From: a virus
Lineage: Duplodnaviria > Caudoviricetes
Reading direction: 5' to 3' (one strand)
Virus record (IMG/VR): IMGVR_UViG_3300013383_000027
Location: 1-64,000 of that record
Length of the DNA: 64,000 nucleotides
Shown piece by piece: positions 194-64,000 of the stretch (position 1 is the first letter of the stretch; every line of letters starts with the position of its first letter). Below the pieces are notes generated by a model. The model had not been told where the DNA came from. It was given only the letters and a program-made list of their open reading frames with translations, and did not search any database. The position numbers were made by a program, and so were the translations under genes.

Positions 194-712
194 TCAGTGT
201 CCACAGAGTTTGGCGATAGCCTCTATTATCGACGCTCCATATGGGGAAAACCCAAGAATCGCCATTGCAATGTACGGATACGGCATTGTAAGGACTTTCT
301 TTATCGTCCCATTCCAAGACTGGTCCTTCTCTTCGAATTCCGGCTGGTTGTTGTCAATGCCAAGTGAGTGTTTGTACTCGTCAAGAATGCGCTAATGCTC
401 CTCCTTCTCTTCTTGGTTCTCGACATACTTCATAGCCTTGCAGGTGAGACACTGCGACCGGTTGGCTTTTTGAACGGTAACATTTATTTTCGCGTCAACC
501 TCAGTGACGAATGTACTTTGTGTGACCGCCAGAAGCTGTATGGCTTCCGTCATCTTCTAGATTTTCTCCTCTGGCGAAATTCCGTTGGTCGCCGTAGTCG
601 TCAGGTTGATGAGCTTAATATAAAGTTTCTTGTAGTTGTCGCTCATGTTCGAATTTGCAATGCGCGTCTTCGCAAACTCGGCGTCATCAATCATGTCTTT
701 TGTAGTTGACAT
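194..712 (-). CDS. Hypothetical protein (172 aa) with C-terminal hydrophobic segment; holin-like candidate; 2 in-frame TAG
   Basis: Absent from the ORF track. Manual translation: MSTTKDMIDDAEFAK...SPEEKI*KMTEAIQLL...EEH*RILDEY...VLTMPYPYIAMAILGFSPYGASIIEAIAKLCGH-TGA. Confidence 0.6.
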
Positions 713-736
713 CGGAGGTTCCGTTCCTTGGGTTGT

Positions 737-1579
737 TTATCTGTTTTCAGCGCCGTAGATGGACCCAACGAAGGTGTTCGGCGAGTTGAGCGTCAACGAT
801 CCCTCAACATTATAGTACTTGTTCGAGTTTGTTCCCACTACGAATCCGGTCGAGATGCGGAGCTTCAGACCGCGCTTCACCGGGAAGGTGAAACCGACAT
901 ACGAACAGAAGTTGTTTCCGATGAACGGCTGAAGCTGAAGAATCCTCCACTCGTTCGAGTCTCCGGTCGTTATGTTTCCCTCAAGCGAAACCCACCTCGT
1001 TGCGTTGTTCTTCCTTTTGTTTTCCGGTTCGTCAAGCCACCCAAAGCAGGTAAAAACACCGGATGTCTGACAGGTGATTTCATTTGAAACGCGTCCTTGC
1101 ACAATCATTCTGTATGCCGTGTTGTACTCTTTTGATGTTGTGAGCTTCCCGTCGGTTACCGCATCCGCACCAATAAACAGCGGGGAGTTTTCCTCGGTGA
1201 ATATCTTCATCGCCTATACGTTGACGACATTGTTAAGATCTGATTCACCCGTGGTTGTCGTTGGGCATGTGAGCTTGTCCTTGAACACCTTCTCTCCCTG
1301 GAATGCGTTTCCGTCCTTGCAGTCAAGCTTGTATATCCTCTACACGGTATTACTCAGGTCTCGGAAGTCGGAGAGTTCCTACATGCTGCCGGATTCCTTT
1401 AGGAGGTCCTTCATGTTCCGGTTCACGGTGCTCTTGAGATCACCTACGCTGACGTGCTTGCTCATGTACTTCCTCACGCCGCTTGCGTCGACATCGACCG
1501 GCACGGAGACCTCAATAAACGAACTGTCGACCGGATTTTTCGCGGTCGGCAATTGGGAAACTGACCTGACAAGACCCAT
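737..1579 (-). CDS. Tail-fibre-associated virion protein (280 aa); 3 in-frame TAG
   Basis: Track ORFs 1379-1579 and 737-1210 join in frame through TAGs (...NNVVNV*AMKIFTEE). It ends in TAA and is preceded by a GTAAATA motif. The N-terminus resembles those of other fibre proteins in the window. Confidence 0.65.
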
Positions 1580-1606
1580 TTATACCTGACTTTCCTTGAT
1601 TTAAGA

Positions 1607-1665
1607 TATTTACATAAAAAATAACGAGAAAGATGCCAGGTCTTTAGCCTGGCATAGAGTTCACA
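1607..1665 (-). repeat. Hairpin repeat cassette copy 1 plus GTAAATA late-promoter motif
   Basis: Plus strand: tatttac...acgagaaag ATGCCAGG tctttag CCTGGCAT agagttcac. It lies 12 nt after the TAA of the GT32 gene. Confidence 0.9.
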
Positions 1666-1677: not shown

Positions 1678-2403
1678 TTATCGAAGCAATTTGTCGTATT
1701 TGCAAAATGGAATTGATGACACATTGGACGACGCCCAGCTAAACGAGTTGAAATGGTCGATGTAGAAGTCAGGAGAAAGTGACCATTTCCCATATCTGAG
1801 CGAACAACGCCTAAACTTGATTCTGTTTCCGACAAATCTCAGGTTCGAGTGCCAGTTCGGAGTCGTCTGCAGTAGTTCAACAACATCTTCACGTCTTCTA
1901 AGCGGAAATTCCCAAAAACCAGTTGGTGATGACGGCTCTGAGCCCATGAAATAGTTGTCCGGGAATATATTGTTGGCTTCATAGTGTCTCGTGACGCAGA
2001 ATCTTCCAGATGAAAGAAGTTCATCATCAAACGGCTTCACAGGAAATGTGTCGCAGTCTAGATATATTCCACCATACTCATTCATGAGTTCCATTCGAAC
2101 AATGTCGGAAAGGATTTGGATGAATCTCAGGTTCTTTCCATAAACATTCTTCTGTTTCCAGATATACTCTCCGTAAAAGTCGTTCCTTCCGAGAAGCGAG
2201 TCGATGCATCTGCGTATCTGGACGTCATATCTTGAATTAAAATCGAAATCTGCCGAACCAATTCTTTCGATTTCCCTAACTGAACGGAAAACCCTGACTA
2301 TCTCGAAATCAGGGTTCACCTCCTTGAAGTTTCCTATCGAGAACTCGACATAATCTGGCATCGAGTTCCCAAACCAGACGAAAAACAACCTCTTCGGAAT
2401 CAT
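1678..2403 (-). CDS. Glycosyltransferase, GT32/DXD sugar-binding family
   Basis: MIPKRLFFVWFG start and DIVRMELMNEYGGIYLDCD motif typical of GT32. Confidence 0.85.
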   Translation of the reverse strand: MIPKRLFFVWFGNSMPDYVEFSIGNFKEVNPDFEIVRVFRSVREIERIGSADFDFNSRYDVQIRRCIDSLLGRNDFYGEYIWKQKNVYGKNLRFIQILSDIVRMELMNEYGGIYLDCDTFPVKPFDDELLSSGRFCVTRHYEANNIFPDNYFMGSEPSSPTGFWEFPLRRREDVVELLQTTPNWHSNLRFVGNRIKFRRCSLRYGKWSLSPDFYIDHFNSFSWASSNVSSIPFCKYDKLLR

Positions 2404-3170
2404 TGCGCCTTTGAACGGAACTTCTCGTTGAGTTCCTTCAGAGGTTCTATCAGTTTTCCAAGCGGCGTATCGTGATATTCGTCAGAAAGGGCGTTCACGT
2501 CCTTCGGGAAGCACTTTCCTCCGTATCCGAAGCATCCGTCAGGACCTGGAACCTGCGTATGGGTCTTGTTTATGTAACCGGAAAGGAGGATTCCGTCCCT
2601 AACATTCCCGAAATCGAGACTATCGCGTTCGCATATGTCATTTATCGCGTTGAAATACGTGACCTTGAGCGCCCCGAAGACGTTATGTGCGTACTTTGCA
2701 AGCGAAGCCTCCATACTCGACATGCAAATGTGCTCCTTTCCGGGGAAAATCCGCTCAAGAAGCCCGATGTTGCCAGTAAAAACCATTTTCTGGCGACGAA
2801 AATCCTCAATATAAGTCCTTTCCGTGAGAAATTCCGGCATATGATGGACTTTTTCGTTGATTTCCTTCAGTTTTTTGAGATTTTTTGGAAGAGTCGTCGT
2901 CCGAATCCAGATGTCCTTGCCTTTTGGAATCATTCTTATGATGTCCTCAAGCACGCCGATGTCCTGCTTGCCGTTTTCAAGAGTTGGAACATGAATCTGA
3001 ATAAAAAATGCATCAATTTCCTCGTTTTCGTATACATTTTCATCATAACCCTTTGCCGGATCCGAAATGTGGAGGATGACATTCGGGTTGTTTTCCTCCA
3101 GCCAGACCTTTAGTGCCGTCCCGATGAAACCACATCCAACCAAACCAACATCAATTTTTTCTGATTTCAT
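2400..3170 (-). CDS. UDP-glucose/GDP-mannose dehydrogenase family protein (short form, C-terminal domain absent)
   Basis: VGLVGCGFIG Rossmann motif, PEFLTE, AKYAHNVFGALKVTYFN and GFGYGGKCFPKD catalytic motif. Confidence 0.9.
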   Translation of the reverse strand: MKSEKIDVGLVGCGFIGTALKVWLEENNPNVILHISDPAKGYDENVYENEEIDAFFIQIHVPTLENGKQDIGVLEDIIRMIPKGKDIWIRTTTLPKNLKKLKEINEKVHHMPEFLTERTYIEDFRRQKMVFTGNIGLLERIFPGKEHICMSSMEASLAKYAHNVFGALKVTYFNAINDICERDSLDFGNVRDGILLSGYINKTHTQVPGPDGCFGYGGKCFPKDVNALSDEYHDTPLGKLIEPLKELNEKFRSKAQ

Positions 3171-4080
3171 TGATAACCTCCAATATTTTGTCGTTTTCTG
3201 TAAGATTTAAACAGTTAATGTCATTTTTGCAGTCGTTGTAGCGGACCTGAAGCCCAATGTCGACATAGTTCAGGTCTATCATGACCTCCTTGTCATGAAG
3301 AAAACACTCCGTGACAAGCCTGGGGCTGCAGTCGAATCGCCTTTTAACCGGTGTATAAATGTACTTGTCGAACTTGTCGAAAAGATTCTCAACCGGAGCC
3401 TCCACCTGCTCTATGTCGTCAAGGTTATCATATTCGGGAAGAAGCTTCGGAACGATGAGAATGCTCCTGCTGCACCCCGAATTGCGGTGGTATTCCTGTA
3501 TGACCTCCGGAGTCACCTTTCTACACGCAAACGTAACATAAAACATTCCCGTGTTGTCATATGTCCTGTTTGGCTTCCTGTAGTACACAAACGGAAGCTT
3601 TTTCACATAATCGAATGTCCTGTAGTAATTATTCGGCTTATAGATTCGGTAGTCCTTCAAGTACACCATGTTCCTGTAGATCGGGGACCTTGTGTTGATT
3701 GCCTCGTCCTTCTCTCCGCACATGAATCCTATCAGGTGTTTTGACATCAAGAGAATGCCATACAATTCAAGCTGGTGGATATTCCCGTCACAGAGCAATA
3801 CGACGGTATCCTTCCCGAACACATACACCTTCTCCCGCTTGAACTCATCAGGTGTTATGTAGGTTATGTCATCTACTATATCATCAAACGATATGTTGTA
3901 TTTCGACTCGAATGCAACCCTTATCTTTTCCCTGCTCATTCCCCCGAAGAAGATTATTCCAGCCTTCATGTAATTCCTAAGGAACAGGTAATAGTCAAAA
4001 CACTCGAACAGATGTCCGGTTATCTCGTCGATTGGAGAATATGTCAGAATTATGTCGTATGACGACTCTATCTTTCGCAT
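3151..4080 (-). CDS. Hypothetical protein (309 aa), possibly a glycosyltransferase-like fold
   Basis: Long ORF overlapping both neighbours in the operon. No diagnostic motif recognised. Confidence 0.6.
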   Translation of the reverse strand: MRKIESSYDIILTYSPIDEITGHLFECFDYYLFLRNYMKAGIIFFGGMSREKIRVAFESKYNISFDDIVDDITYITPDEFKREKVYVFGKDTVVLLCDGNIHQLELYGILLMSKHLIGFMCGEKDEAINTRSPIYRNMVYLKDYRIYKPNNYYRTFDYVKKLPFVYYRKPNRTYDNTGMFYVTFACRKVTPEVIQEYHRNSGCSRSILIVPKLLPEYDNLDDIEQVEAPVENLFDKFDKYIYTPVKRRFDCSPRLVTECFLHDKEVMIDLNYVDIGLQVRYNDCKNDINCLNLTENDKILEVINEIRKN

Positions 4081-4991
4081 CAGATTATCGAGTTCCTGTT
4101 GTTCCTATTGCAGTATTCTACGACTCTCATGTTGCAATAGCGGCAGCATTCGCATTTTCCGGAAAGTATGTCGTCGTAATTTCCGTCCCAACCCGTCAGG
4201 TTGTTTTCCTCCATGTGGACATAGCATGGATAGATATCACCAAACGCGTCAATCTGCAAGGAATAATCTTTTATGCTTTGACAATAAATATCTGTCTTCC
4301 CCATTTTTCTGTAGAAATCAACCAGGGAATTTATTTTTTTGTATGTATCATATATATCTTTTGGCGGAAGAAAATCTAAATACTCAAAATTGTTTTTGTA
4401 ATCATCTTGTGGAGATGGATAACAAGTGTCAAGGTATTCAATCTTATGAAATCCAACTAACATGTTTTTAAATTTGTTTGATTTTATATCATCGTTATTG
4501 TATGAAAACCTAATGCATTTCGCACAATCTATATTTCTTATTCTACGTATGCATGATGCATGTCTAAGAATACGTTCTAGATTCGTATTTACCCTGTAAT
4601 GTTCGTGATTTTTCTGGTTGCTTCCACACAATGTAAACCAGATCTCGTCATTATCATCCATTAAATCGCCAAGTCTATTCCAATATTCATCCTCATGCAA
4701 ATCTCCATTCGTGCATATTTTTATCTTTAAACCACGTTTCTTTATCTCATTTACGATCTCATGAAATTCTGGGTGAGTTGTCGGCTCAGATAATTGACCA
4801 ATCAAATAAACTGTCTTCAAATTTGGAAAAGAAAAAATCTGTTTCAGGACTTTTTCTCCGTTTCTATAGAACGGTTTCTTGTATTTTTCACTGAAAGATA
4901 TTTTGTTTCTATAGCAAAGCGGACATTTCGCATTGCATATTGTCGTCAAATCGAGCTCCACCAACTGTACTTCATTGTATTTCAAATGCAT
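4080..4991 (-). CDS. Radical SAM protein with SPASM/twitch-type C-terminus
   Basis: CNAKCPLC (CxxxCxxC), IGQLSEPTTHP, TNG, C-terminal CQS...IDAFGDIYPC...CECCRYC. Confidence 0.9.
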   Translation of the reverse strand: MHLKYNEVQLVELDLTTICNAKCPLCYRNKISFSEKYKKPFYRNGEKVLKQIFSFPNLKTVYLIGQLSEPTTHPEFHEIVNEIKKRGLKIKICTNGDLHEDEYWNRLGDLMDDNDEIWFTLCGSNQKNHEHYRVNTNLERILRHASCIRRIRNIDCAKCIRFSYNNDDIKSNKFKNMLVGFHKIEYLDTCYPSPQDDYKNNFEYLDFLPPKDIYDTYKKINSLVDFYRKMGKTDIYCQSIKDYSLQIDAFGDIYPCYVHMEENNLTGWDGNYDDILSGKCECCRYCNMRVVEYCNRNNRNSII

Positions 4992-5599
4992 TGTACCCTC
5001 TCAAAATCTTTATCGTGTATCATACGTTTTATTGATTCTTTTGTCATTCTATCTGAAAATTTCGATATGATTTCATGTTTCCTTTTTTCAGACAATATCG
5101 GTCCTGTCTGTTCATGGAAGAAAGATGATGGAATCAAATCAAACAAAATATCCCTGTTTATTTCAAGAAAATTTCCAAGACGGCATATATTGTCATCTGT
5201 GACAACAATGACATATCTAACATTATACTCGTCGTGTTTTTCAATTTGTTCTTTTTCAAACAAATCTTGCGAGCAATGATATAATATCTCAAAAGTTTTT
5301 TCACACAATCTAGGATACTTGAAAAACATCCCGTTCGTTTCTATGTATATTTTACATTCCTTTTCTTGCAAGTTCTTAAAATATTCTTCAAGTATATCTT
5401 CCTGTACAAGTCCTGGTTCTCCACCAAATATGGTAACGTTTGATTTTTCTGGAATTGTTTTTAATCTTGAAATTATATTTTCTGCATCACAATTGGCATT
5501 CATGTCCACTTTATTTCTTACTGCACAATAAGGACAATTCCAATTGCATTTTGTTGTTATCAAGATTGAATAATCATTTTCTACATTAAGAATTGGCAT
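4982..5599 (-). CDS. Radical SAM protein (short, 205 aa)
   Basis: CNWNCPYC, FGGEPGL, IETNG. Confidence 0.9.
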   Translation of the reverse strand: MPILNVENDYSILITTKCNWNCPYCAVRNKVDMNANCDAENIISRLKTIPEKSNVTIFGGEPGLVQEDILEEYFKNLQEKECKIYIETNGMFFKYPRLCEKTFEILYHCSQDLFEKEQIEKHDEYNVRYVIVVTDDNICRLGNFLEINRDILFDLIPSSFFHEQTGPILSEKRKHEIISKFSDRMTKESIKRMIHDKDFERVQCI

Positions 5600-6374
5600 T
5601 TAAAAATCTCTTTGAATTTTTTAAGTCTAACATGAAGTCAGAAATGGTCTTGTGTTTATCCTCCAGATAAAAATCAGAAAGATGCAACTTTATGTTTGTT
5701 TCGCTCATTCTGTCTTTTCTTTCTTTGTAGCGTTCTATCTTTCTGCATAGACCAATATCGTGAAAATGAAAACATTTTATTTTATTTGTTTGTATACATT
5801 TGCCACATATTTCTGGTTTTGATTCATAACATCCGGGAAGATAATTCGTCTCTTTTACTAGATTTGGATTAAAAACCAACATTTTTTGTTTCTTTCCAAA
5901 TCTATCATATTTTTTATCTATATCATTGTAGTATTTCCATTCATCTATATAAAAAGTATCAACTATATTGTGCATCAATCTACCATCATATTTTGGAAAA
6001 ACATATGAAATCAAATTTAGGAATTCTGGTGTTATTGTCGCGATGTTTTCATTCTTCATTTCTCTTAAAATCAGTTCTGGTTCATCTATAAACAAACATT
6101 CGTCCATGTCTGAAACTATAACAAAATCCGTTTTACCAACAACATTTTTCCAACACATGTTTTTTATTCTCAAGAGTTCCATGTCATCGAGAATACCATT
6201 TGTTTTCCACACCTTGACAGTAACGAAAGGTATTTTTTTGAGAAATTCATATGAACCATCGTTTGATTCGTTGTCATAAACCGTAACATGCGCATTCATA
6301 TGCTTCCAATAATCGACAACAAACGGAAGTATTTGGATTTCATTATAGCAAAACGTGAACCATTCAACGATCAT
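5586..6374 (-). CDS. Glycosyltransferase (GT2/GT92-like)
   Basis: TFCYNEIQILPF, VYDNESNDGS and FVIVSDMDE (DXD) motifs. Confidence 0.8.
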   Translation of the reverse strand: MIVEWFTFCYNEIQILPFVVDYWKHMNAHVTVYDNESNDGSYEFLKKIPFVTVKVWKTNGILDDMELLRIKNMCWKNVVGKTDFVIVSDMDECLFIDEPELILREMKNENIATITPEFLNLISYVFPKYDGRLMHNIVDTFYIDEWKYYNDIDKKYDRFGKKQKMLVFNPNLVKETNYLPGCYESKPEICGKCIQTNKIKCFHFHDIGLCRKIERYKERKDRMSETNIKLHLSDFYLEDKHKTISDFMLDLKNSKRFLNANS

Positions 6375-7257
6375 GAATTTCTCCGTTTCCTATTGTTACC
6401 CCGAAATTTCCATGTCTACAAAATGGACATTTGCAGACAACAGTTGTGTATTTTTCAACATCAAATCCATCTTTTATGTTATATAAGGGTTTGTCTCCAT
6501 AGTAAAATTCATTTTGACATGGATATACATTCCCATTTACGTGAATATACAATGTATCAACACCGGCGGTACATTCATTTCCGGAATAATCATCCATATA
6601 CACAGCCGAAAAATCATCAAAGATAGATTTATATATGTCCTTGTGCCCAATATGCTTTTTTACGTCAACAAAACCATTTTTAATGAGAATTGAAGAAAAA
6701 TTACGAATATCATCATCTGAATATTGAAATACACCACTTGGTTTATATAAAAGCCACGGAACAATAACGTTTTTATACTTTTCTTTCAAAGTATAAATTA
6801 CATTTCCCCATCTATCTGAATTTCCAAACTCATACATCATGGCTATTTCAATTATGTTGGCTTGGTTTATTCCAGTTAGACCGTTCAAGAATGATACGAA
6901 TGTTGTGTCGTTTGTTTCAGTGTGCCACGATACTGAAAACTTCACATTTTTTGAAAGCAATTCAGCATAATCACATCTAGCGACAGAAAGATTTGTATAC
7001 ATATCCACACTACATACATTTTTTATATTGAATGATCTTGTTACAAGTTCTGAAACCTTTGGATGTAGTGATGGTTCTCCACCTATTAAAGACAATTTTA
7101 TATTTCGTCCGGTTTTCTCTGAAATTTGCGCAAGGAAATTCAAGAGAATGTCAATATCAATAAAATTCCCACTTCTTGGCTGTCTGTTGTAGCAATACGA
7201 ACATTTAAAATTACACGCGTCAGAAATATAAACAAGAATTGTTAACTCAGTATTCAA
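6364..7257 (-). CDS. Radical SAM/twitch protein, paralog of 8320-9279
   Basis: CNFKCSYC, IGGEPSLHP, CTAGVDTLYIHVNGNVYPC...CKCPFC. Confidence 0.9.
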   Translation of the reverse strand: MNTELTILVYISDACNFKCSYCYNRQPRSGNFIDIDILLNFLAQISEKTGRNIKLSLIGGEPSLHPKVSELVTRSFNIKNVCSVDMYTNLSVARCDYAELLSKNVKFSVSWHTETNDTTFVSFLNGLTGINQANIIEIAMMYEFGNSDRWGNVIYTLKEKYKNVIVPWLLYKPSGVFQYSDDDIRNFSSILIKNGFVDVKKHIGHKDIYKSIFDDFSAVYMDDYSGNECTAGVDTLYIHVNGNVYPCQNEFYYGDKPLYNIKDGFDVEKYTTVVCKCPFCRHGNFGVTIGNGEIHDR

Positions 7258-8323
7258 TATATTCGTCCTCTCTTATGAGATCAAGTGTCGAACAATGTAT
7301 ACCGCCAGCAAATATCTCACCATTATCCAATTCAACCTCAATGATATCGAATCCATTCTGTTCAAGTGCCTTTTTAACACCATATGCTTTTTTGTTCACA
7401 AGTACGGTATGCTCATCCAGACTTAAAACATTTATATCCATTCCACGACTTGATGCAAGACGTATATCAATATCTGTCATTCCTCTAACATCAAGTTGTT
7501 CTGTTAGATCCTCTGGGATAATGAAGTTCCATTTTTTGAATTTTTCTGGCAACATGTCTCTTACACAAGCGAATTTAGGATTCAACAGGAATGTCCCAGG
7601 TTTAAGACACACAAGTTCACCATCAATATGCGAATCTGCGCATTTGACAACGTGGAATTTCGATTCTGGGAACAACGACTTGACCCATTTGTATCCAAGA
7701 TATTGATTTTGTGTGGCTACATTTACAATAACATCCTTTCCTATTGTCAAAAAATTTGGAGCATCAATCGACATCTCATATCTCGCATTCGCGTTCGTGA
7801 AATCTCTGTCTTCCTTCCAGTCGACCAAATCGTACGTTTCCTTAATCAAATGGGTGTTCGGAGCCTTTATCCACTTACCGCCATTCCCGTTATCAAACGC
7901 CCTCTGGAATATTCTGTACATCTGCAGGTTCTCAAAAACCCTGTTCCTCAGACATATCGGTGTCTCCACAATCGTGTCGTTGTAGACCAGTGTGAGATCC
8001 CTGACATTGTTGGCCGAACTCATCTCGGTGTCATATGTCGGGGTCTTTATCTTGTGAACTCCAATTACCCTGTCCGGCCGGAAAACGGTTACACCAAGAC
8101 TTTCAAGGACACCTGCAAGCGCGTCAAGCTGTTCCACCCTTCTCTGCAATATATTCTCGGTTATTGAATACAACTCATGTCGGCTGTTGTAGAGTCCCTC
8201 GGGGAGAAGGTTCTCCCTGAAGAAATTCCTGAACGTAAAATCGATCAGACGACGGCTTATTTCAAGCTCACGCCCGACAATAACCTCCCGCAACTTCCCA
8301 AAAGTCGTATTACAGTGAATCAT
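7247..8323 (-). CDS. Amidinotransferase (glycine / inosamine-phosphate amidinotransferase family)
   Basis: FGKLREVIVGR, NVRDLTLVYNDTIVETP, DAPNFLTIGKD, SHIDGELV, C-terminal GGIHCSTLDL with the catalytic Cys. Confidence 0.9.
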   Translation of the reverse strand: MIHCNTTFGKLREVIVGRELEISRRLIDFTFRNFFRENLLPEGLYNSRHELYSITENILQRRVEQLDALAGVLESLGVTVFRPDRVIGVHKIKTPTYDTEMSSANNVRDLTLVYNDTIVETPICLRNRVFENLQMYRIFQRAFDNGNGGKWIKAPNTHLIKETYDLVDWKEDRDFTNANARYEMSIDAPNFLTIGKDVIVNVATQNQYLGYKWVKSLFPESKFHVVKCADSHIDGELVCLKPGTFLLNPKFACVRDMLPEKFKKWNFIIPEDLTEQLDVRGMTDIDIRLASSRGMDINVLSLDEHTVLVNKKAYGVKKALEQNGFDIIEVELDNGEIFAGGIHCSTLDLIREDEYIEY

Positions 8324-9279
8324 TTCTTCACACCCTTCAGTATCTTCTCCTTGCGGACGTCGAAGTCACACGAGCAGTAATCAACAGAACATATGCACGG
8401 CTTGAACAGTTCCCTCCTGTACTCTCCATTCGTCTCCATAAGGTTGCAAATTGGCTTCCTTCTATGCTCATAATAACTCTGGCAATTGTATACGTTTCCA
8501 TCGGCATGCACATACACGTAGTCAAGCCCAGCATTACACTTCCAAAGATGGAAATTGACAAGGGGGTTAAGGTACATGTCATTGAAAGAAACCTGCTTCT
8601 CCGTTCCATCACTGTACCTCAGAGTGAAGAAATCCCTGACATACTTGAGTTCTCTCGTGAACCTGTGGTAGAGATCGAGCTGTTCCTGCGTATAGTTATA
8701 CGGCTGTCCATTCTTATCCGTGAGCAGGCTTATCTCAATCCATTTCTTGTAGCGCGGAACGAGAAGCTCATATGTCCTTACCGAGTTCTTCCAGTTGTCC
8801 TTCTCAAACATTATGCGGACTTCGATCAAATCCTTCTCGAAATACATCATCGGTATCGCAAGCATCTTCGAGATGTATTTGTTGTTCGCCGGATCGCACT
8901 TCGTTCCGTGCCACGACGCGGCAATCTTGATGTTCCGCACAAGAAGCCATTTCGCATATTCGAGGTCAAACGTGAAATTTGTTATTATCTCAACCTATAT
9001 ATCGTCGAGGGTGTTTAAGTGTTCAAGGAATCTTTTCAAATCCGGGTGGAGTGTCGGCTCACCTCCTATAAGCGAAACGTTGAGCCTTCTGCCCGTTTTC
9101 CGTTTCATGTCTTCGACAAACCTAAACATAAGTTCGAGATTGGCAAGACCACTTGTTCTCGGAAAGAAGTTATAGCAGTATGGGCAACTGAAGTTGCACC
9201 TGTCTGCGACAAACAACAAAACGTTTATCACAGACACGTCCTGCTTGACGTATTGTTCAATCGGGTATATGTCGTTCAT
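8320..9279 (-). CDS. Radical SAM/twitch protein; 1 in-frame TAG at 8995
   Basis: Track ORFs 8995-9279 (CNFSCPYC, IGGEPTLHP) and 8320-8940 (CNAGLDYVYVHADGNVYNC) join in frame through LDDI*VEIITNF. The joined gene is colinear with paralog 6364-7257. Confidence 0.9.
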
Positions 9280-11681: not shown

Positions 11682-11712
11682 ACTCCATAGTATACCGTTT
11701 TCGAGAAAAAAA

Positions 11713-14122: not shown

Positions 14123-14140
14123 TTCCTCCGTTTTGAAAAG

Positions 14141-14707: not shown

Positions 14708-14719
14708 TCGAAAACTCCT

Positions 14720-17137: not shown

Positions 17138-17150
17138 TGTCTTCTCTTCC

Positions 17151-17157
17151 TATTTAC
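17151..17157 (-). promoter_or_regulatory. GTAAATA late-promoter motif overlapping the upstream TAA stop
   Basis: AAACCGTAAATAGGAAG, 13 nt before the ATG of 16352-17137. Confidence 0.6.
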
Positions 17158-44552: not shown

Positions 44553-44558
44553 CCGACA

Positions 44559-44781: not shown

Positions 44782-44795
44782 GGTTTCCCAGGACG

Positions 44796-46381: not shown

Positions 46382-46404
46382 ATAAAAATACTCATTTTGA
46401 TGTT

Positions 46405-54552: not shown

Positions 54553-54574
54553 GTTAACTCCTACCTTACAGAAA

Positions 54575-54633
54575 TATTTACAAAAAATTTGACGAAAAAG
54601 ATGCCATGTTTTCAGTCTGACACATAAATCGTC
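54575..54633 (-). repeat. Hairpin repeat cassette copy 7 (degenerate) plus GTAAATA
   Basis: tatttacaaaaaatttgacgaaaaag ATGCCATG ttttcag TCTGACAC ataaatcgtca. Confidence 0.75.
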
Positions 54634-54646
54634 AATACCATTTTTG

Positions 54647-54670
54647 GTGAACTCTATGCATAGAATTCAC
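54647..54670. repeat. 24-bp palindrome made of two head-to-head cassette arms
   Basis: gtgaactctatgcatagaattcac, with one mismatch. Confidence 0.75.
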
Positions 54671-54698
54671 AGTTCTGAAGAGTGTTCACACGAAAAAA

Positions 54699-55574: not shown

Positions 55575-56167
55575 CAGCTGAATATACTCCCCAATGCCCC
55601 TACGACACCAGAAACTTTTCCAAGCTGCCCCGGCGTCACGCTGAAGTCTATCGCGGAACAGTTCATCGTGAACGTCTGTACGTCGCCGCCGCTGTGCTGG
55701 AAGGACAAGCCTGAGCAACTTTTCAGCCTAACACCGTTAAGCTTTATTATCGTCCCCTTGTGCTTGTCGTCTCCTATTGCCTTGATTGTGATTGTGTATC
55801 CGCTATTCGTGATCGCGCTACCAGAATCATTGACAAGGAAGTTTGTCAGTGCGGTGTAGATATATCCGGACGCGTCATTTATGACTGTCATGCTGAAATC
55901 ATGCTCGTACTCAAAGTTCTGCGGTATTTCAACGAGCTTTCCGTCAAAATACAGGTTTGTGACATTCTGCTTGACTCCAGGAGATGAAATTTGTGTAATG
56001 AAGAAAGACGACTGCGGTATTGCGGAGAACACGGCTTCGTACCGGCTCGTTATCTGGACGCCGAGAGAATCCATGGCTGACATGAACTTCTTCAGCGAGT
56101 TCTCCTTTCCGAATCCCGCCTGAATACTTGAAGCCGCACCTATCAGATTTCCCAACTCAAGACCCAT
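55574..56167 (-). CDS. Tail tube-fold paralog (gp19/gp54-like)
   Basis: SFFITQISSPGV...FEYEHDFSMTVIND is colinear with the tail tube protein. Confidence 0.7.
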   Translation of the reverse strand: MGLELGNLIGAASSIQAGFGKENSLKKFMSAMDSLGVQITSRYEAVFSAIPQSSFFITQISSPGVKQNVTNLYFDGKLVEIPQNFEYEHDFSMTVINDASGYIYTALTNFLVNDSGSAITNSGYTITIKAIGDDKHKGTIIKLNGVRLKSCSGLSFQHSGGDVQTFTMNCSAIDFSVTPGQLGKVSGVVGALGSIFS

Positions 56168-56184
56168 GACATCTACCTCTGAAA

Positions 56185-56242
56185 TATTTACAAAAAATTT
56201 GACAAGGAAGATGCCATGTCTTTAGCATGGCATAGAGTTCAC
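56185..56242 (-). repeat. Hairpin repeat cassette copy 8 (compensatory stem variant) plus GTAAATA
   Basis: tatttacaaaaaatttgacaaggaag ATGCCATG tctttag CATGGCAT agagttcac. Confidence 0.9.
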
Positions 56243-56271
56243 AAAAACCGTGCGGTCTCCCACACGGTTTT
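56243..56271 (-). terminator. Intrinsic terminator after the tail tube gene
   Basis: AAAACCGTG...CACGGTTTTT hairpin with flanking A/T runs. Confidence 0.7.
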
Positions 56272-56347
56272 ATAACTCCTATGCTGAGAAAAGGCAACCA
56301 TCTCCAGAGGCTACCAGCTTCAACGCACCTCATCAATTGGAAATCAA

Positions 56348-56923
56348 TCAGACCTGGTTCGAGAATGCACCCGCGTTTACCGAACCCTTCTCAATCTGCC
56401 AGTACGTGCTCCTGAAGGAAACCGTGAAGGTGGAAACACTGGCTTCTGTGTTCGACACCGTCAATGCTCCGACATCTGCGATCCTGACACCGACGAGCTT
56501 GTACGATTCGGAGATTGTCTCCATGTCGTTGTCTAGTAGGTTGATTCGCATTATGGAGCCTGTGTTGAGACGCCTGTCCCCTTTGAGAATCGAGCCACCT
56601 TCGATATCCGGATCCCATGTCTTCGACTGCCACGCGAGAAACGCCCTGCGGATTTCTCCGTTTGCGTCGGCGTTGACAGTCATTGAGTGTTCGTTCGTCA
56701 TTTGCTGGTTTGTCGGAATCGGGAATGCATACCCCTTGAACGATACGTCGGCATAGCTTGTTGTTCTGGACGGGATCTCGAATCCTTGTCCATACATCGT
56801 TATGTCCTTCAAAACCGCATCGACATCCGAATATCCGGACGTGATGTAAAGCTCGAACATGTTTGTCGTGCGGATCTGGTTCGTCGTCAGCTTGTTGAGA
56901 AATTCGTTTAGGGCTCGTGCCAT
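56348..56923 (-). CDS. Tail tube protein, T4 gp19-like
   Basis: RTTNMFEL, FEIPSRTTSYADVSFKG, HSMTVNADANGEIRRAFLAWQ, VSTFTVSF. Downstream of the sheath gene. Confidence 0.9.
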   Translation of the reverse strand: MARALNEFLNKLTTNQIRTTNMFELYITSGYSDVDAVLKDITMYGQGFEIPSRTTSYADVSFKGYAFPIPTNQQMTNEHSMTVNADANGEIRRAFLAWQSKTWDPDIEGGSILKGDRRLNTGSIMRINLLDNDMETISESYKLVGVRIADVGALTVSNTEASVSTFTVSFRSTYWQIEKGSVNAGAFSNQV

Positions 56924-56955: not shown

Positions 56956-57006
56956 AAAAAATGACGATTGTGGTTCGCCCCATGAATTTACAAAGAAAAA
57001 ACACAG

Positions 57007-57034
57007 TTGACGATTTAAACAAAAACCGTATAAT
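57007..57034 (+). promoter_or_regulatory. Sigma70-type promoter TTGACG-N16-TATAAT for the homing endonuclease
   Basis: ttgacg atttaaacaaaaaccg tataat, 31 nt before the ATG. Confidence 0.75.
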
Positions 57035-57065
57035 ACTTACTACTTAGCTTTATCTGGAAATTCCT

Positions 57066-58796
57066 ATGACATACAAAGAAATATCGCTCTTTCTCGAAAA
57101 CTTGAATATCGGAAAATCGAAACGTGAAATTTTCCTGAAAAACCACTGTCCAGATATTTTAAATGAAATTTTAAAAGCAACGAAGTTTCTCGATGAGACG
57201 AACAAGGACGACCGTGAGATAACTTTTGCTGAACGCGTTTTCTGCATCCTGCATAATATTCACGAACGTCCAAAATGCATACAATGTGGTTCTTATGTGA
57301 TGTTTGCTAAAGATCGTGGTTGCTATCGTGAATTTTGTTCTCAAACATGTTCGAGAAAAAGCGAACAGACAAAGACGAAACGAAAAACCACAACATTGGA
57401 ACGCTATGGAAGTGAAACATTCCACAACATCGAAAAAGCAAAGAAAACAAGATTTGAACACAACAAAGGCAAATGGCATTCAGATGATTTCTCTAAAAAA
57501 GTGAAAGAGACGAAATTTGGGAAATATGGAGATGAAAACTGGAGCAATCCTGAAAAAACATCAAAGACAAATATGGGAAAATATGGCGTAGTCTATCCAT
57601 TCCAATCAAAAGAAATAAGAAGCCGTGCCGTTGAGTCTTTTATGAAAAAACACAACGGAATATCTTGTGTGTTCAAACTTCCGTCTGTTATGAAAAAAAC
57701 ACACAAAGGAATAAGAAAAAGATCATACGGTTTCATTTTGGAAGATAAGAACATAACTCCGAATTTCACAGAAGAAGAGTACGTGAACGGTTCTTCCGAA
57801 ACCGAATTTGAATTCATATGCAGCAAATGTGGTTCGAAATTCAAATCGACATGGGAGCGTGGATTTTGCAAAAGATGTCCTACATGTTATCCTGAACCGT
57901 TTGGTATGTCGAATGCAGAATGTGAACTTTATGAATTCCTGAAAAACAACTGTGGTTCTAAATGGTCTGTTTTTCATCGCACAGATATAAACAAAAACAT
58001 TTTAAATAAACGTGAAATAGATATTGTCCTGAAAAGTGTTTCAGGACAATATCTATGTATAGAATATGATGGACTTTTCTATCATTCGGAAGAAAATGGA
58101 AAACACACAAACTATCACTTGTCCAAAACAGAAGAGTGTGAAAAATCTGGCATTCAGTTAATCCATATTTTCGAGAATGAATGGATTTCAAAACAAAAAA
58201 TAGTCGAATCGAGATTATTAAACCTACTCGGAATATACGAAAACACGGTGTATGCAAGAAAGTGTTCAATAAAAACAGTAGATAAAGATACAAAAGACAG
58301 ATTTCTTGATCAAAATCACATCCAGGGAAAATGTTCATCTAGTTTTAACTGTGGTTTATATTTTGAAAATGATTTAATTTCATTAATGACTTTTGGAAAA
58401 TCTCGCTTTTCAAAAAAATACGAATGGGAATTGATAAGATTCTGCAACAAAACGGGTTATCATGTTCCTGGTTCGGCCGGAAAACTGCTAAAATTCTTTG
58501 AAAAGACAATGAAGCCAAAATCAATTGTCTCTTATGCGGACAGAAGATGGTCTGTTGGAAAACTATACTATTCACTTGGATTCAATCTAGACCACACATC
58601 AAACCCAAACTACTGGTATTTCAAGCCAAATAAACCATATGTAATCTACAACCGAATTGGGTTTCAGAAGCACAAATTACCGAAACTGCTGAAAGAATAC
58701 GACCCAAAACTTTCCGAAACAAAAAACATGGAAAACAACGGATACATGAGACTGTGGGATTGTGGAAATCTGGTATTTGTGAAGACTTGTACTTAA
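57066..58796 (+). mobile_element. Free-standing Hef-like homing endonuclease gene between sheath and tube genes
   Basis: Repeated TLERYG/KFGKYG/NMGKYG DNA-binding motifs, a zinc ribbon, nuclease core EIDIVL...IEYDGLFYHS...LIHIFENEW and C-terminal SYADRRWS...LGF domain. AT-rich, on the opposite strand, no TAG. Confidence 0.85.
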
Positions 58797-58900: not shown

Positions 58901-61567
58901 TTAATTCATCTCATCCCACGAACCGCCAGTTCCAAGGGCGTAGAAGTCGATGAGGATGAATTCAGCCGTCTTCACTGGCTTAAGACCAATCTTGACCTTC
59001 AACTCATTGTTGTCAATTGTGTTTGCATCATTGATTGACTCGTCACAGATGATCTTGTAGTCATAGAGACCACCACCACATTTCACCTTGTAGAAGATTG
59101 GATCAAGTGTGTCAATGAGACGCTGACGGGTGTATGCGGTGTTTCCTTCATAGACAAAGTAGCGAGCAACTTTGAATGTCTGCCTTTCGAGGCGAAGGAA
59201 GAGGCGCCTCACGTTGACCCTATCGAAAGCACTGGGCTTGACTTGGAATGTCTTCTGTCCCTCAAGGACGATACCATCTGTCGGATAGTTGATTGCGTAG
59301 TTCCAGTTCTTCTCATAAATCGTTCCGGCTTGTTTTGAGGTTGGCGAGAACGCAACGTCGGTAGCCGAAACAAGACCACGGTTCAGTCCGGCTGGGGCGT
59401 CCCAGTAATTCGCATTGGAATCTGTGTAGATGTAGACACCCATAGCCTTTATGGAAGGGGGGCACCAGAAGAAGTCTCCTGTGAACTCATCGGCAACCTC
59501 AAACCAGTCCATGTATCCGGCGCCGTAGTTTGTGTTAAGACCGGTAATGTATTTGATATACGGAAGGATGTTGGTGTCGATGCTGTTTGTAGGCTTCGAC
59601 GGACGGACAATCTTCTTCTGTCCGTCGATAACGAGTGGACGAAGACCGTCTGCAATGAACATGCAATCCTTCCTGACATTCTTACAGAAATTGTCGTACT
59701 TCTGTTCGATCGACTTCCATGTCTTGACTGCAGAATCGTTCGAGTTGATCTTCCAGAGCGAGCACGCCGTTGCGCCCGTAGCCTCATTGACCATCGCGTT
59801 TAGATCATACTTGCCCTTTCCGCCATAGACTTTCTTGATAAATGAACCGATGTTGGCAAGTCCTGCGTCCACAACGATGTCTATGTCGCGCTCGTTTACG
59901 TCAGATACCTTGTTGAAGCTGCGCGTGATACCCTCGTAGATCGAGCGGTCAAGAGAGATGTCCTCTTCTGTCATGTACGAATAAAACCCGAGTGAGGCAG
60001 AATTGTCGGTCGGTTTCGAGATTATAATGTCGCACTTCTCGATATAATTTTTCTTGTCAGACGAGGTGTTGAAGCAGTTCGAGAAGACATTGATGTACTC
60101 AGATGTTGTATTGACTATGGTATCAATAAACGTCGTGACACCAGTGTTCGGATCGACGTCTTCCTTGTAGAGCGAGCCGACGAACGCCTCGACCGGCTCG
60201 AACGCAATCTTATTGCCCTCGGACGAATCGATGTAAGTTTTGAACACGACGATGCCGATCTTCTTGAAGTGGGTCCTGTCGAACCCCTCTCCGGTCTTGT
60301 CGAGTTCTATCGTGTTGAAGTACGCGTTGGCCACCTGTGAAATCGTCTCGGGAATGTCATCGTCGCCATCCTCTGCGTGAATTCCGGCATAACCATCCAG
60401 GTAGGAATATAGCTTTGAGACGGAAGTCTGACAGTCTCCAACCGTGCTGTCTTCCTCTATCCTAAGCTCATCAAGCGCATTGGCCTCCGCGATTAGTGAA
60501 TCGGAGTTAAGCTCGTCCGCTATCTTGAGCATCTGTGCCTTGACTGCATCGGCAGCGGCATTTATGAGTTCCGGCCATTCCCTTATTGAATCGGGTGCAC
60601 CGGAAAGACCGTTTTCCTCATAGTACTTCTTCACAATCTCGTCAAGACCGGAGAGCGTCGTGTCCTCCTTAAGCTGTTCCTGGACGAGGGTCATGCATTC
60701 GGCGAGCGTATCGTTTATCTGTCCTATCGTCTCAAGATTTGACGTAAGGCTCTCATACTTGACATAGAAGTGCTTGTAAACCGAGTTAAGCTGCTCGACG
60801 AGATCCGTGTTGTAAAGCTCAGCCATGCTCTTGTCGTTGTCTTCCTCATTCGTCGCATTTCCGGCGAGAATACCTCCGGTACCGGCTCTAAGCGTATCTA
60901 TCTTGCCGAGTGGCTCGTAGAATTTGACCCGATACGGCTTTACGTCGATTAGCGACTGGGTGTAAAGGGCATTTGCGGCGGTTGTGATGACAGGAACTAT
61001 TCCGAGCAACTCCCTCTGCATACCCTTGCGCGTGTCCGCGTCAATCATCTTGTAGGTGGCGCACGTTTTGTCGACGATTACGAATGTATTGCGCCCAACC
61101 TTCTCCTCGTTCGTCCTCCATGCATCGACGGATGCGGTATCGACAAGGTAGGGGGTATCGGCGGAATCGATGACATATGCATCCCTCACCGTTTTGTCGG
61201 AGTCGTGTATCTCGTGGAACCACCCGTTTTCCTTAAGCTCATTATAATCTTCCTTGAACGTGACGTTGTACTTGTGTGCTACCATCTTGTCACGCGCCTG
61301 ATTGTCATACGGAAGACGGGCGCAATAAAGAGTTCCGTTCTGGTTGATGACCTCCATGCAGGCATTGAAGAAATACCTCTCCGCCTCGTTGTCCGGTTCA
61401 CCGTAATAGTTTATCCACGCCGTGCGCGAAGAGAATTCCATCGGGACGTAGGGTTCGCCCTTGTTGGCGAATCCCATGACAAAGCACTTCGTGCCGGTCT
61501 CGGTTTTCGCGTACTGCGACTTGTCAATTTCTTTTATCTCAACTCCAGGAGCCTGAATAGTTCTCAT
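58901..61567 (-). CDS. Tail sheath protein, T4 gp18-like (888 aa, no TAG)
   Basis: MRTIQAPGVEIKEIDKS, YWDAPAGLNRG, GQKTFQVKPSAFDRVNVRRLFL. Confidence 0.95.
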   Translation of the reverse strand: MRTIQAPGVEIKEIDKSQYAKTETGTKCFVMGFANKGEPYVPMEFSSRTAWINYYGEPDNEAERYFFNACMEVINQNGTLYCARLPYDNQARDKMVAHKYNVTFKEDYNELKENGWFHEIHDSDKTVRDAYVIDSADTPYLVDTASVDAWRTNEEKVGRNTFVIVDKTCATYKMIDADTRKGMQRELLGIVPVITTAANALYTQSLIDVKPYRVKFYEPLGKIDTLRAGTGGILAGNATNEEDNDKSMAELYNTDLVEQLNSVYKHFYVKYESLTSNLETIGQINDTLAECMTLVQEQLKEDTTLSGLDEIVKKYYEENGLSGAPDSIREWPELINAAADAVKAQMLKIADELNSDSLIAEANALDELRIEEDSTVGDCQTSVSKLYSYLDGYAGIHAEDGDDDIPETISQVANAYFNTIELDKTGEGFDRTHFKKIGIVVFKTYIDSSEGNKIAFEPVEAFVGSLYKEDVDPNTGVTTFIDTIVNTTSEYINVFSNCFNTSSDKKNYIEKCDIIISKPTDNSASLGFYSYMTEEDISLDRSIYEGITRSFNKVSDVNERDIDIVVDAGLANIGSFIKKVYGGKGKYDLNAMVNEATGATACSLWKINSNDSAVKTWKSIEQKYDNFCKNVRKDCMFIADGLRPLVIDGQKKIVRPSKPTNSIDTNILPYIKYITGLNTNYGAGYMDWFEVADEFTGDFFWCPPSIKAMGVYIYTDSNANYWDAPAGLNRGLVSATDVAFSPTSKQAGTIYEKNWNYAINYPTDGIVLEGQKTFQVKPSAFDRVNVRRLFLRLERQTFKVARYFVYEGNTAYTRQRLIDTLDPIFYKVKCGGGLYDYKIICDESINDANTIDNNELKVKIGLKPVKTAEFILIDFYALGTGGSWDEMN

Positions 61568-61604
61568 TTTCGTCCTTTGCAGTCATTAAATCGTTATTCT
61601 CTGA

Positions 61605-61611
61605 TATTTAC
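61605..61611 (-). promoter_or_regulatory. GTAAATA late-promoter motif for the sheath gene
   Basis: Exact motif in the intergenic gap between the two sheath genes. Confidence 0.65.
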
Positions 61612-61641
61612 AAGAATCATCTCGGGAAGTGTTCCGAAAAA

Positions 61642-64000
61642 TCACAAGTTCCCAATCGTCACTTCCTCTACAGAAGCTCCTTGTGACGTACAGATGAAAT
61701 TAAGGACGATGAACTCCCCCGATTTCACAGGCTTGACCCCAAACGCGCAATGAAGCTCGTTGTTTTCAATCGTGTTCGCGTTGTTGTTCCTGTCGTCACA
61801 GACAATCCTGTAATCCTGTATTCCAAAACGGCTGACGGCATCGTCAAATATTGGGGACATCGTGTCAACAAACCTCTGCATCATGTAGTCTGTTATACCC
61901 TCGTAGATAAAGAACTTGGACAGATACCTGACCCTGCTCTCGAGACCGAGGAACAAGCGTCTCACATTAACCCTATCAAAAGCCGTCTTGTCGGACTGGA
62001 ACGTCTTCTGACCCTCAATGACTATCCCGTTTATCGGGTAGTTCATGGCATAGTTCCACGACGAGTTGTAGATAGCCCACGACTGCCTGTTTGTCGGGTT
62101 GAACGCGGTGTCGACAACGTCATTCGGGAGTACGCCACGATTGAGCCCGGCCGGGGCGTTCCAGTAGTTCGAGTATGCATCGGTGTAGAGGTACACGCCA
62201 GCAGCCTTGATTGATGGAGGACACCAGAAGAGGTCTCCGGTATGCCCGTCGACACACCTGAACCAGTTGCAATACCCAGCGCCATACGATGTATTGATTA
62301 CACCGGATATGTACTTCAGCTTCGGATGGATCTGGTTCTCGATTGTGTTCTGTGGGCTTGTGTCGCGCACAAGCTTCTCGTCCCCCTGCAGGCAGAACGG
62401 TCTCGGGGCGTCTGCGATGAACATGCAGTCCTTGCGGACGTTCTTGCAGAAATCGTCATACTTTTTGAGAATCATCTCCCATTCTACGGTATGGGTTTTC
62501 GAACTCAGCTTATGCTTGTACGATATCTTCGACAGGTTGTCATAATATCCTATCTCCCGCTAATAGACCGATTTTATGAACTGACCTATATTCGACACGC
62601 CCGCATCGACGACAAGATCAACCTCAGAGGTGTTGATATCCCTATTGTGGTCGAATATATAGTCTATTGCCCTGTTTAGAGAATTCTTTACGGATATGAG
62701 CTTATCGCTGTCCGACAAGTAAAGACCAAGCGAAACGGCATCGTTCTGTGATGCAATGAAAATTGATGCCTTGTCGGCGTCGTAGAGCTTGATGTTACCG
62801 TTCTCGGAGAACCTCACGTTGCTGAAGAACCTTATGTACCTCGACCCCTAGTTGACCATCGTGTCAAGGAAAATGGACGCTTTGGTAATCGGGTCGACAG
62901 CTTTGCGGTTCAACGAGCCGACGAACGATTCAACTGCGGAAAATGATATCTTATTGTTATTCGATCTATCGACGAACATCTGATAGACGACAACACCGAC
63001 TCTCTTTAGCAGGTCCGTATCGTAATGACCATCCCTTGTGGTTATCTCCGGGAAGCTGGAGGACGCCACTAGCGAAAGCGTCACCTGCCCATCCTGTACG
63101 TCATTCTCCCCTCCGATGTCTTGTGAAAATCCTGTTATCGTCAATATGTCATTGTTAAGACCAACAAGATCGTTTGAGACATCCGCGTATTTCTCGACAC
63201 CGTTCTCATCGACATATACATACCTGTTTGTCGACTTTACGTTGCTGATTGTGCCAACGGGAGAATAGTCCTTGTTGCCCTGCCTTGAACGACCGAGCTG
63301 ATTTTGTACGTACAGTGCGTTTGCGGCGGTCGTGAACACCGGGAGAATTCCCGCATATTCGAGATTCTTATTCTTGAACGTGTCAATCTGATATCTCTGC
63401 CTGGATATGTCCACAACGACAATCCGCCCGGTCTATACGGCAAGCCTGTTCGTCTGCAACTTGTCTAGTGTCTCCATCTCAAGCATACCAGACATCTTCC
63501 CCTCCTTCCGTCCAATTGACCTTATGCCAAGGTATGTCTATATGGACCCATCTGCCACCTTCAACTCGGTGAACTTTGTGTAGAGAAGTTCGTTTTCAAG
63601 GAACGAGCATATAACCTTGATGATCTTTTCTATGCAAACCTTGAACTACTTAGCCGCTTTTCTCGTTGCAACCAACAATACCTGTTTCTTGCTTGTTTCA
63701 AGAATTCCCTGACTTTGGGTTTTAAGCACTCTTTCTATCGAATAGTCCTCATCATACACGATTCCGGAAAGGAGATCCCTCAAGTCCTCAAGCTATGTCA
63801 CGTAGTAGCTCAAACCCTTACTCCTCGCGAAACGCTCGACCCACTTGTCTGCACTAGAGAGTTCGGTTGAAAGTGTCTTCTGGAGTTCGTCAAATCCAAC
63901 AATGCTTCCGTCGTCAAGACCGTATTTGGCACTGAGACCGAGAACCTCTTTGGGATTCTGCAAAACACTCAGGAGAACATCGTACTAGTTGTTCTAAAAG
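61642..64000 (-). CDS. Second tail sheath paralog (5' end outside the window); at least 8 in-frame TAG
   Basis: YWNAPAGLNRG and GQKTFQSDKTAFDRVNVRRLFL. Fragments join through TAG at 62560, 62848, 63433, 63538 and four more. The frame is open to the window edge. Confidence 0.9.

Follow-up and report, generated by a model that had tools for sequence, protein, structure and literature searches.

In-frame TAG codons in the late genes of a T4-like jumbo phage are probably read as glutamine

How should the amber (TAG) codons that interrupt genes on a phage contig be read: as stops or as a sense codon and, if the latter, for which amino acid? The question is raised by a 64-kb stretch of DNA (hereafter the window), which consists of bases 1-64000 of the virus record IMGVR_UViG_3300013383_000027, a single contig of 83,007 bp with 46% G+C and no terminal repeat, whose completeness CheckV puts at 32%. 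Judged by its gene content, the source of the window is a T4-like jumbo myophage with a predicted genome of roughly 260-280 kb, of which the contig makes up about one third. Below, we present the case that this phage uses TAG as a sense codon for glutamine (NCBI code 15), a reading to which we assign a probability of about 0.9.

Reading through TAG rebuilds genes. A first-pass annotation of the window had counted about 75 in-frame TAGs in 20 genes, a figure borne out by our curated gene set, which contains 74 in 19 genes of the window and 86 in the whole contig. During curation, antisense shadow open reading frames (ORFs) were dropped and three start codons were moved downstream of TAGs. The three TAGs excluded in this way lie ahead of likelier start codons in 3151-4227, 16352-17191 and 56961-58796, the exclusion in 16352-17191 being made on start-codon context alone, while the ORF at 56166-56849 (plus strand), which holds 2 TAGs, was discarded because it mirrors, in antisense, a real, TAG-free gene at 56348-56923 (minus strand). 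All in-frame stops in the curated genes are TAG, with no TAA, no TGA and no frameshift among them. As had been reported, readthrough restores a compact, mostly minus-strand gene array with 4-nucleotide (nt) ATGA overlaps (for example 25143-26225/26222-27442, 36735-38861/38858-39625 and 48049-50880/50877-53411). Two of the readthrough products that the first-pass annotation singled out also yield continuous domain matches. In the gp6-like baseplate wedge protein (639 amino acids (aa); 34726-36645, minus strand; PF21379, phrog_219/phrog_6), phrog_219 covers residues 10-281 and phrog_6 residues 318-567, spanning the TAGs at codons 247 and 546 respectively, while in the radical SAM gene at 8320-9279 (minus strand) the Radical_SAM domain occupies residues 24-109 and spans the TAG at codon 95.

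Coding density and stop codon usage are in line with these observations. The comparison of genetic codes that had been proposed, conducted with a greedy non-overlapping gene set, raised coverage from 88.0% under code 11 (109 ORFs, mean length 225 aa) to 93.1% with TAG as sense (69 ORFs, mean 376 aa). The merging of ORFs was not comparable when TGA (89.9%, 91 ORFs, mean 276 aa) or TAA (89.8%, 111 ORFs, mean 226 aa) was read as sense instead. Six-frame stop-to-stop ORF totals were also tried and set aside, as they could not separate the codes, off-frame TGAs inflating the total with TGA as sense. The earlier remark that TAG terminates none of the genes is circular once TAG has been called sense, yet it is upheld by a non-circular test: in the 44 genes that lack an internal TAG, and for which the ORF is therefore identical under code 11, the first stop is TGA in 37, TAA in 7 and TAG in none. 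The idea that the TAGs arose as nonsense mutations, the genes being pseudogenes of a decaying, non-functional provirus or of a defective assembly, draws on the 'provirus' label that IMG/VR gives to the closest relative (G001, described below) and on the fragmented genes of public code-11 calls, which break the second tail sheath paralog into pieces of 188, 85 and 277 aa, but its probability is practically nil, as it is refuted by the all-TAG pattern (86/86 in-frame stops, no frameshifts) and opposed by protein identity to G001 that runs on through the TAGs at 75-95%, by TAGs at mostly different positions in three related lineages, by the recovery of the same phage at high coverage from many samples and by the tRNA-CUA genes of its relatives.

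To determine which amino acid TAG specifies, we turned to related genomes. The TAG-free tail sheath paralog 1, used as a probe, retrieved seven related IMG/VR contigs, the closest of which, G001 (IMGVR_UViG_3300045988_186425, 184,635 bp), is collinear with the whole contig, with protein identities in best alignments of 52-95%, mostly 75-95%. Aligning homologs at the TAG positions reveals glutamine columns: across the 71 aligned TAG sites of the curated set, G001 has CAG at 46, TAG at 7, GAG at 8 and other sense codons at 10. Both TAGs of the gp6-like gene face CAG in an ortholog that is 95% identical, and in the gp15-like gene (321 codons) the TAG at codon 320 aligns to CAG as well.

A codon matrix for the late genes, built from the gene set before curation and therefore comprising 70 aligned TAG sites, allows TAG to be compared with the two standard glutamine codons. 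Opposite TAG in this phage, G001 has CAG 45, CAA 0, TAG 7, GAG 8, GAA 1 and other codons 9 (glutamine-type 74%); opposite CAA, it has CAG 48, CAA 5, TAG 4, GAG 2, GAA 0 and others 18 (74%); and opposite CAG, it has CAG 270, CAA 10, TAG 9, GAG 14, GAA 3 and others 53 (80%). The substitution profile of TAG thus matches that of the minor glutamine codon CAA and, since the glutamine-type share is equal for the two, TAG evolves as a synonymous glutamine codon. Where G001 has a standard glutamine codon opposite TAG, that codon is CAG throughout, CAA being absent, in keeping with a single C/T transition step. This codon-level comparison supports the proposal of the first-pass annotation that the amino acid is glutamine, and it is on this comparison that the call rests, the tRNA features of the relatives described below being consistent with glutamine without proving it.

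That TAG encodes some other residue (glutamate, tyrosine, lysine, leucine, serine, tryptophan or pyrrolysine) is highly improbable. The 8/71 TAG sites that align to GAG could speak for glutamate, and an ARAGORN label of 'tRNA-Pyl', which was assigned from the anticodon alone, for pyrrolysine. However, CAG and TAG together occupy 75% of aligned sites, a share equal to the self-conservation of glutamine codons, and the reverse comparison is more selective still, with TAG facing 9.5% of G001 CAG codons versus 1.1% of GAG and 0% of AAG, TAC, TAT, TTG or TGG codons. In terms of TAG sites, none faces TAC/TAT, AAG, TTG or TGG in G001 and one faces TCG. Because these one-step neighbours of TAG are not linked to it in G001, tyrosine, lysine, leucine, tryptophan and serine appear very unlikely, while the GAG sites probably reflect ordinary glutamine/glutamate exchange, as CAG sites show likewise. 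Pyrrolysine decoding was considered separately and rejected, since the TAG columns are glutamine and the tRNA-CUAs of both relatives are ordinary cloverleaves that carry G73 and G2-C71 and lack the unusual tRNA-Pyl structure; no search was made for the pylS or pylBCD genes. Two further sources of homologs proved unsuitable for the residue call: sheath homologs from cultured phages are about 31% identical or less, and align across the C-terminal domain alone, where there are 0 TAG sites, while relatives at 40-56% identity (L004-L009) have mixed residues at the TAG columns, these positions being too variable.

The same alignments show that TAG positions turn over rapidly. We counted 188 in-frame TAGs in G001 and 339 in a more distant relative, G002, and their positions mostly differ among the three related lineages, with 7-11 of 71-77 sites (about 10-15%, at about 80% protein identity) common to this phage and G001. 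TAG densities across the three lineages are 1.0, 1.2 and 3.7 per kb, at 50%, 46% and 42% G+C respectively.

TAGs are not evenly distributed among the transcription units of the contig. In the minus-strand late genes, TAG accounts for 85/629 glutamine-type codons (13.5%), as compared with 1/99 (1.0%) in a sugar/radical-SAM operon (Fisher p = 3.7e-5 versus late genes) and 0/74 (0%) in the plus-strand, replication-type genes (p = 8.5e-5). The absence of TAG from the 20 glutamine codons of sheath paralog 1 is not significant against the 13.5% share (p about 0.06). This partition is mirrored by the sequences that precede the units. The motif GTAAATAT occurs 10 times in the window, each time on the minus strand (at 1606, 14732, 36666, 40225, 41799, 44558, 47873, 54574, 56184 and 61604), versus 1.43 occurrences expected, and in 100 shuffles a count of 10 was never reached. 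For most copies, the start codon of a structural gene follows within 5-40 nt. The T4 late promoter is TATAAATA, and by analogy we infer that GTAAATAT is a putative late promoter. Conversely, the sugar operon and the plus-strand genes have sigma70-like sites (TTGAC-N17-TAnAAT) ahead of them. TAG is avoided in these sigma70-type units, which comprise the sugar operon as well as GroEL, SbcCD and the replication-type genes. Several late genes are additionally preceded by a repeated cassette in which a G+C-rich hairpin (ATGCCAGG...CCTGGCAT) is followed by CTTTCTCGT and then by GTAAATAT (window positions about 1633-1655, 41800-41850 and 44560-44610; contig positions 70777-70830); the arrangement resembles a terminator joined to a late promoter.

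The sugar/radical-SAM operon itself (1678-16020, minus strand) consists of 18 genes with 1 TAG in 4,835 codons, at codon 95 of the radical SAM gene described above, where G001 has CAG. It is preceded by a terminator at 16093-16074 and by a sigma70-like promoter, TTGACT-17-TAAAAT, at 16056-16028. The operon encodes six radical SAM enzymes (one with a SPASM domain), three glycosyltransferases, a DegT/StrS aminotransferase, an NAD epimerase, a UDP-sugar dehydrogenase and an amidinotransferase-like protein, and is kept in G001 at 61-90% aa identity. We would guess that it makes a modified sugar, destined either for DNA or for the virion.

If TAG is read as glutamine, what decodes it? The statement that the window holds no visible suppressor tRNA or release factor gene is borne out and can be extended to the rest of the contig: neither contains a tRNA, even at relaxed thresholds, an RF-1/RF-2 (release factor 1 or 2) domain or the catalytic domain of a glutaminyl- or glutamyl-tRNA synthetase (GlnRS or GluRS). 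The corresponding families PF00472 and PF00749 were not found in G000-G004, nor were they among the precomputed Pfam labels of a 281-kb scaffold from the closest lineage at positions 3,035-109,203 and 269,845-281,252. The proposed search for tRNA-CUA, RF2 or GlnRS genes beyond the window was successful in part, yielding a tRNA-CUA in two relatives, none in this contig, and no RF2 or GlnRS in the sequence examined.

The first of these tRNAs is found in G002 (IMGVR_UViG_3300028048_000110, 91 kb), whose sheath is 59% identical and whose gene order is common with our contig across the sheath-GroEL-SbcCD region. G002 is heavily recoded: when TAG is read as sense, its coverage is 92.5%, up from 78%. 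Its tRNA-CUA, located 1.6 kb downstream of the sheath gene and within a region that differs between relatives, has U1-A72, G2-C71, G10, G73 and an encoded CCA end.

The second comes from the lineage of G001. Look-ups of exact proteins revealed that G001, in whose 184 kb no tRNA was found, belongs to a near-complete human-gut scaffold of 281,252 bp (ENA ERZ28585934 scaffold_2), beginning at its position 96,215. We read positions 3,035-109,203 and 269,845-281,252 of this scaffold directly and took the stretch between them as G001 sequence, identity having been checked at the start of G001 and at two marker genes. The part beyond G001 is an early-type region of small genes with an array of ten tRNAs (three Met/Ile-type CAU, Ala, two Arg, Asn, Thr and two Ser), among which the CUA anticodon is absent; a greedy ORF comparison of codes was too noisy in this region for TAG to be read there as sense or stop. 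A stand-alone tRNA-CUA (L046:13054-13127) is located 4.6 kb from the array and has an A1/A72 mismatch, G2-C71, G73 and CCA. It is followed by a hairpin, and a copy of GTAAATAT lies 37 nt upstream on the same strand; with nine copies, on both strands, in the 106 kb of the scaffold examined, the chance of such close placement is about 0.003.

The tRNA-CUAs of both relatives are ordinary cloverleaves with a weak or mismatched 1-72 pair. The identity elements of E. coli tRNA-Gln include G73, G2-C71, G3-C70, G10, U35 and U38 (PMC1865053), while bacterial GatCAB recognises U1-A72 (PMC2811023). Searches of genome, viral and metagenome contigs with tRNA fragments returned known contigs and chance matches, with no host tRNA and no tRNA from the phage's own lineage.

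The 281-kb relative also encodes a free-standing YqeY protein (PF09424, E = 6e-30; L055:15435-15863). In GatB and in Deinococcus GlnRS, the YqeY domain forms the tail that binds tRNA-Gln, and the phage protein might help in charging the suppressor with glutamine, but the Deinococcus domain worked in cis only (PMC1865053). A TilS-like PP-loop gene is embedded in the tRNA array (L045:15925-18065). Elsewhere, the scaffold encodes a full IF3, a NusA-like protein, a sigma70 r2/r4-like protein and two RNA ligases (genes of this group at L055:5259-5846, L053:3868-5154 and L053:6986-7780), as well as a split TnpB (OrfB_IS605 and Cas12f1-like_TNB; L040:12842-13759).

These observations bear on the possibility that the suppressor is supplied from outside, by the host or a co-infecting phage, or that the host itself reads TAG as glutamine. 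The lack of a tRNA on the 83-kb contig is what such a source would predict, and surveys include many recoded phages without a detectable suppressor tRNA (bioRxiv 10.1101/2021.08.26.457843; PMC13037316), the share of TAG-recoded genomes in which Borges et al. detected one being about 40% (bioRxiv 10.1101/2021.08.26.457843). We nevertheless consider an external suppressor unlikely, with a slim chance of being correct. The contig covers just about 32% of the genome, and the tRNA-CUA of the closest lineage is located in the early-gene region, which is not part of this contig; the more distant G002 encodes one too. Avoidance of TAG in early genes is, moreover, what one would expect if there is no suppression when infection begins.

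We therefore favour a phage-encoded suppressor tRNA-CUA that would decode TAG and, because both relatives examined have one, would be expected in the two thirds of the genome beyond the contig. Glutamine-charging enzymes of the host would load this tRNA, either by GlnRS or by a non-discriminating GluRS followed by GatCAB, and termination would proceed through TGA (78% of stops) and TAA, by host RF2 and RF1. As the tRNA-CUA of the closest relative sits behind the same late-promoter-like motif as the structural genes, the suppressor may be made with the late transcripts, in which case messages that carry TAG would be translatable only from late transcription on.

Such a scheme leaves two ways to explain the partition of TAG between late genes and other units. 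It could represent adaptive regulation, which is the model that Borges et al. propose, or it could equally result from simple purifying selection that keeps TAG out of genes whose expression precedes the tRNA. The neutral explanation fits at least as well, since turnover between CAG and TAG is high and TAG behaves like CAA. We tentatively entertain the idea, although it is somewhat doubtful, that this lineage represents codon capture in progress and not a tuned regulatory switch, because the suppressor tRNA appears to be driven by a late promoter, TAG drifts neutrally against CAG, and the lineages span 1.0-3.7 TAGs per kb.

Several observations weigh against glutamine decoding by a phage-encoded suppressor as set out here. 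A tRNA-CUA was not found in the 83 kb of this phage, nor in the 184-kb G001 fragment, and the mechanism is extrapolated from relatives because the contig has none of its own. In both relatives, tRNA positions 3-70 and 38 depart from the E. coli glutamine set, as does position 10 in one of them. GAG aligns to 11% of TAG sites, and a few sites could differ from the rest in the residue inserted. The partition is not absolute, with one TAG inside the sigma70-type sugar operon. Finally, the glutamine assignment is drawn from nucleotide comparison, and the route by which the tRNA-CUA would be charged is a proposal.

The remaining gene content is that of a T4-like myovirus. Pfam and PHROG searches identified gp6, gp25, T4_baseplate, two sheath proteins, gp15 and SbcCD, of which the gp15-like protein and SbcCD lie outside the window, in the rest of the contig, together with a UvsW-type helicase and GroEL. 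Unless otherwise stated, the genes described here are on the minus strand. At the start of the window, two late genes (172 and 280 aa; 194-1579) downstream of the GTAAATAT copy at 1606-1613 have 2 and 3 in-frame TAGs, which correspond in G001 to CAG, CAG, GCT, TAG and CAG. Beyond the sugar operon are a 616-aa protein with BspA-type leucine-rich repeats (LRR) and 4 TAGs, probably a tail-fibre or receptor-binding protein (17154-19004), and a 2046-aa structural protein (19006-25146) with 3 TAGs, each CAG in G001. In these two likely tail-fibre proteins, we observed BspA-type LRR_5 repeats along with a match to the Listeria-Bacteroides repeat that falls below the Pfam cut-off; repeats of both kinds are associated with gut anaerobes. 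Three structural genes follow (360, 406 and 392 aa; 25143-28620), with 1, 0 and 1 TAG, and then a 1951-aa structural protein (28860-34715) with 12 TAGs, for which G001 has CAG at 9, GAG at 2 and TAG at 1.

On the far side of the gp6-like gene, gene calls identify two genes (36735-39625) for proteins of 708 and 255 aa, with 14 and 3 TAGs respectively; the 14 sites of the former are CAG 8, TAG 2, GAG 1 and other codons 3 in G001. The gp25-like baseplate wedge protein (39638-40213; PF04965, E = 3.5e-16) has 0 TAGs, and late genes of 228, 895, 416, 112 and 467 aa (41107-47808) have 1, 3, 2, 0 and 1. For the next two proteins (943 aa with 2 TAGs and 844 aa with 8; 48049-53411), G001 has no close ortholog, which places their TAG sites outside the codon comparison. 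A T4_baseplate-like protein identified by Pfam (53671-54552) is free of TAG, and the 339-aa protein encoded with it (53671-55718 for the pair) has 3, all CAG in G001. Between the sheath and baseplate genes, a gene on the opposite strand (57066-58796, plus strand) encodes a 576-aa protein with DUF7487 and REase_MTES_1575-like matches and may be a candidate homing endonuclease. The tail sheath paralogs are arranged in tandem, each with its own GTAAATAT motif upstream, and the duplication is kept in G001 and G002. Paralog 1 (888 aa; 58901-61567; PF17482) has 0 TAGs, while paralog 2 (981 aa; 61642-64587 of the contig, cut by the end of the window at 64000; phrog_23, E = 3.8e-45) has 10, with 8 of them in the window, and the 10 sites are CAG 6, GAG 2, TCT 1 and GGA 1 in G001.

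The similarity to T4 thus extends from gp6, gp25, gp15, sheath and T4_baseplate proteins to a gp46/47-like SbcCD and a UvsW-like helicase, with homologs of gp13 and gp19 present in the relative, and to a short A/T-rich motif directly ahead of late genes. The phage differs from T4 in having GTAAATAT in place of TATAAATA as this motif, a duplicated sheath gene, a genome of about 280 kb and TAG as a sense codon. There is no terminase gene on the contig by which the phage could be placed in the named clades of Borges et al.

Decoding of amber codons as glutamine has a classical precedent in suppression by tRNA-Gln(CUA), for example E. coli supE. The tRNAs of the relatives resemble supE in their CUA anticodon, with U35 kept, and in G73, G2-C71 and a weak 1-72 pair. 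Unlike supE, they are encoded by phages, and TAG has apparently been abandoned as a terminator in phage genes. Among phages, the first-pass annotation was correct that TAG-to-glutamine recoding is established in gut phages; jumbo and T4-portal types are among them. The general model and the glutamine call in other gut phages have been described (bioRxiv 10.1101/2021.08.26.457843), as have a survey of recoding in jumbo phages, with a threshold of 10% for the gain in coding density (PMC13037316), TAG-to-glutamine recoding in a Phassvirus group (PMC10607447) and, reportedly, metaproteomic evidence from crAss-like phages (PMC9523058). This phage belongs among these code 15 gut phages, and the phenomenon is already known. 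As in Lak, crAss-like, Agate, Garnet and related code 15 phages and in the recoded jumbo phages of PMC13037316, its TAGs are concentrated in structural and late genes, while its early genes can be read with the standard code. Glutamine is the residue to which TAG aligns, a tRNA-CUA occurs in the lineage, the relatives examined derive from human gut metagenomes, and the genetic code varies between close relatives, all of which is also true of that group. On the other hand, unlike the phages of these surveys, recoding is light (1.0-1.2 TAGs per kb), and the gain in density of about 5 points is under the 10% threshold of the jumbo phage survey (PMC13037316). An accessory RF2 or GlnRS is optional in code 15 phages and has been seen in some Lak and Agate phages; in contrast to these, RF2 was not found in this contig or in the examined sequence of its relatives. 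Jade phages have an early 'code change module', whereas the tRNA-CUA of the closest lineage sits behind a late-promoter-like motif.

While recoding itself is not new, the phage described here is useful for annotation and as part of a series for studying stop-codon capture. Its TAG-free sheath protein is present letter for letter in 42 blocks of a public collection, with contig coverage of up to about 1260x, and the phage is common by this measure, its lineage being found in ENA assemblies ERZ26858495, ERZ26859189 and ERZ26859193 and in run SRR29834372; annotation, clustering and structure prediction of a widespread phage consequently need code 15. Lightly recoded genomes such as this one can be missed by density-based detection. 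The three related lineages, with their graded TAG density and fast CAG/TAG turnover, provide a natural series for the study of stop-codon capture. If codon capture is indeed in progress in this lineage, lightly recoded phages would lie below the density thresholds of surveys, and TAG recoding in jumbo phages would be commoner than reported.

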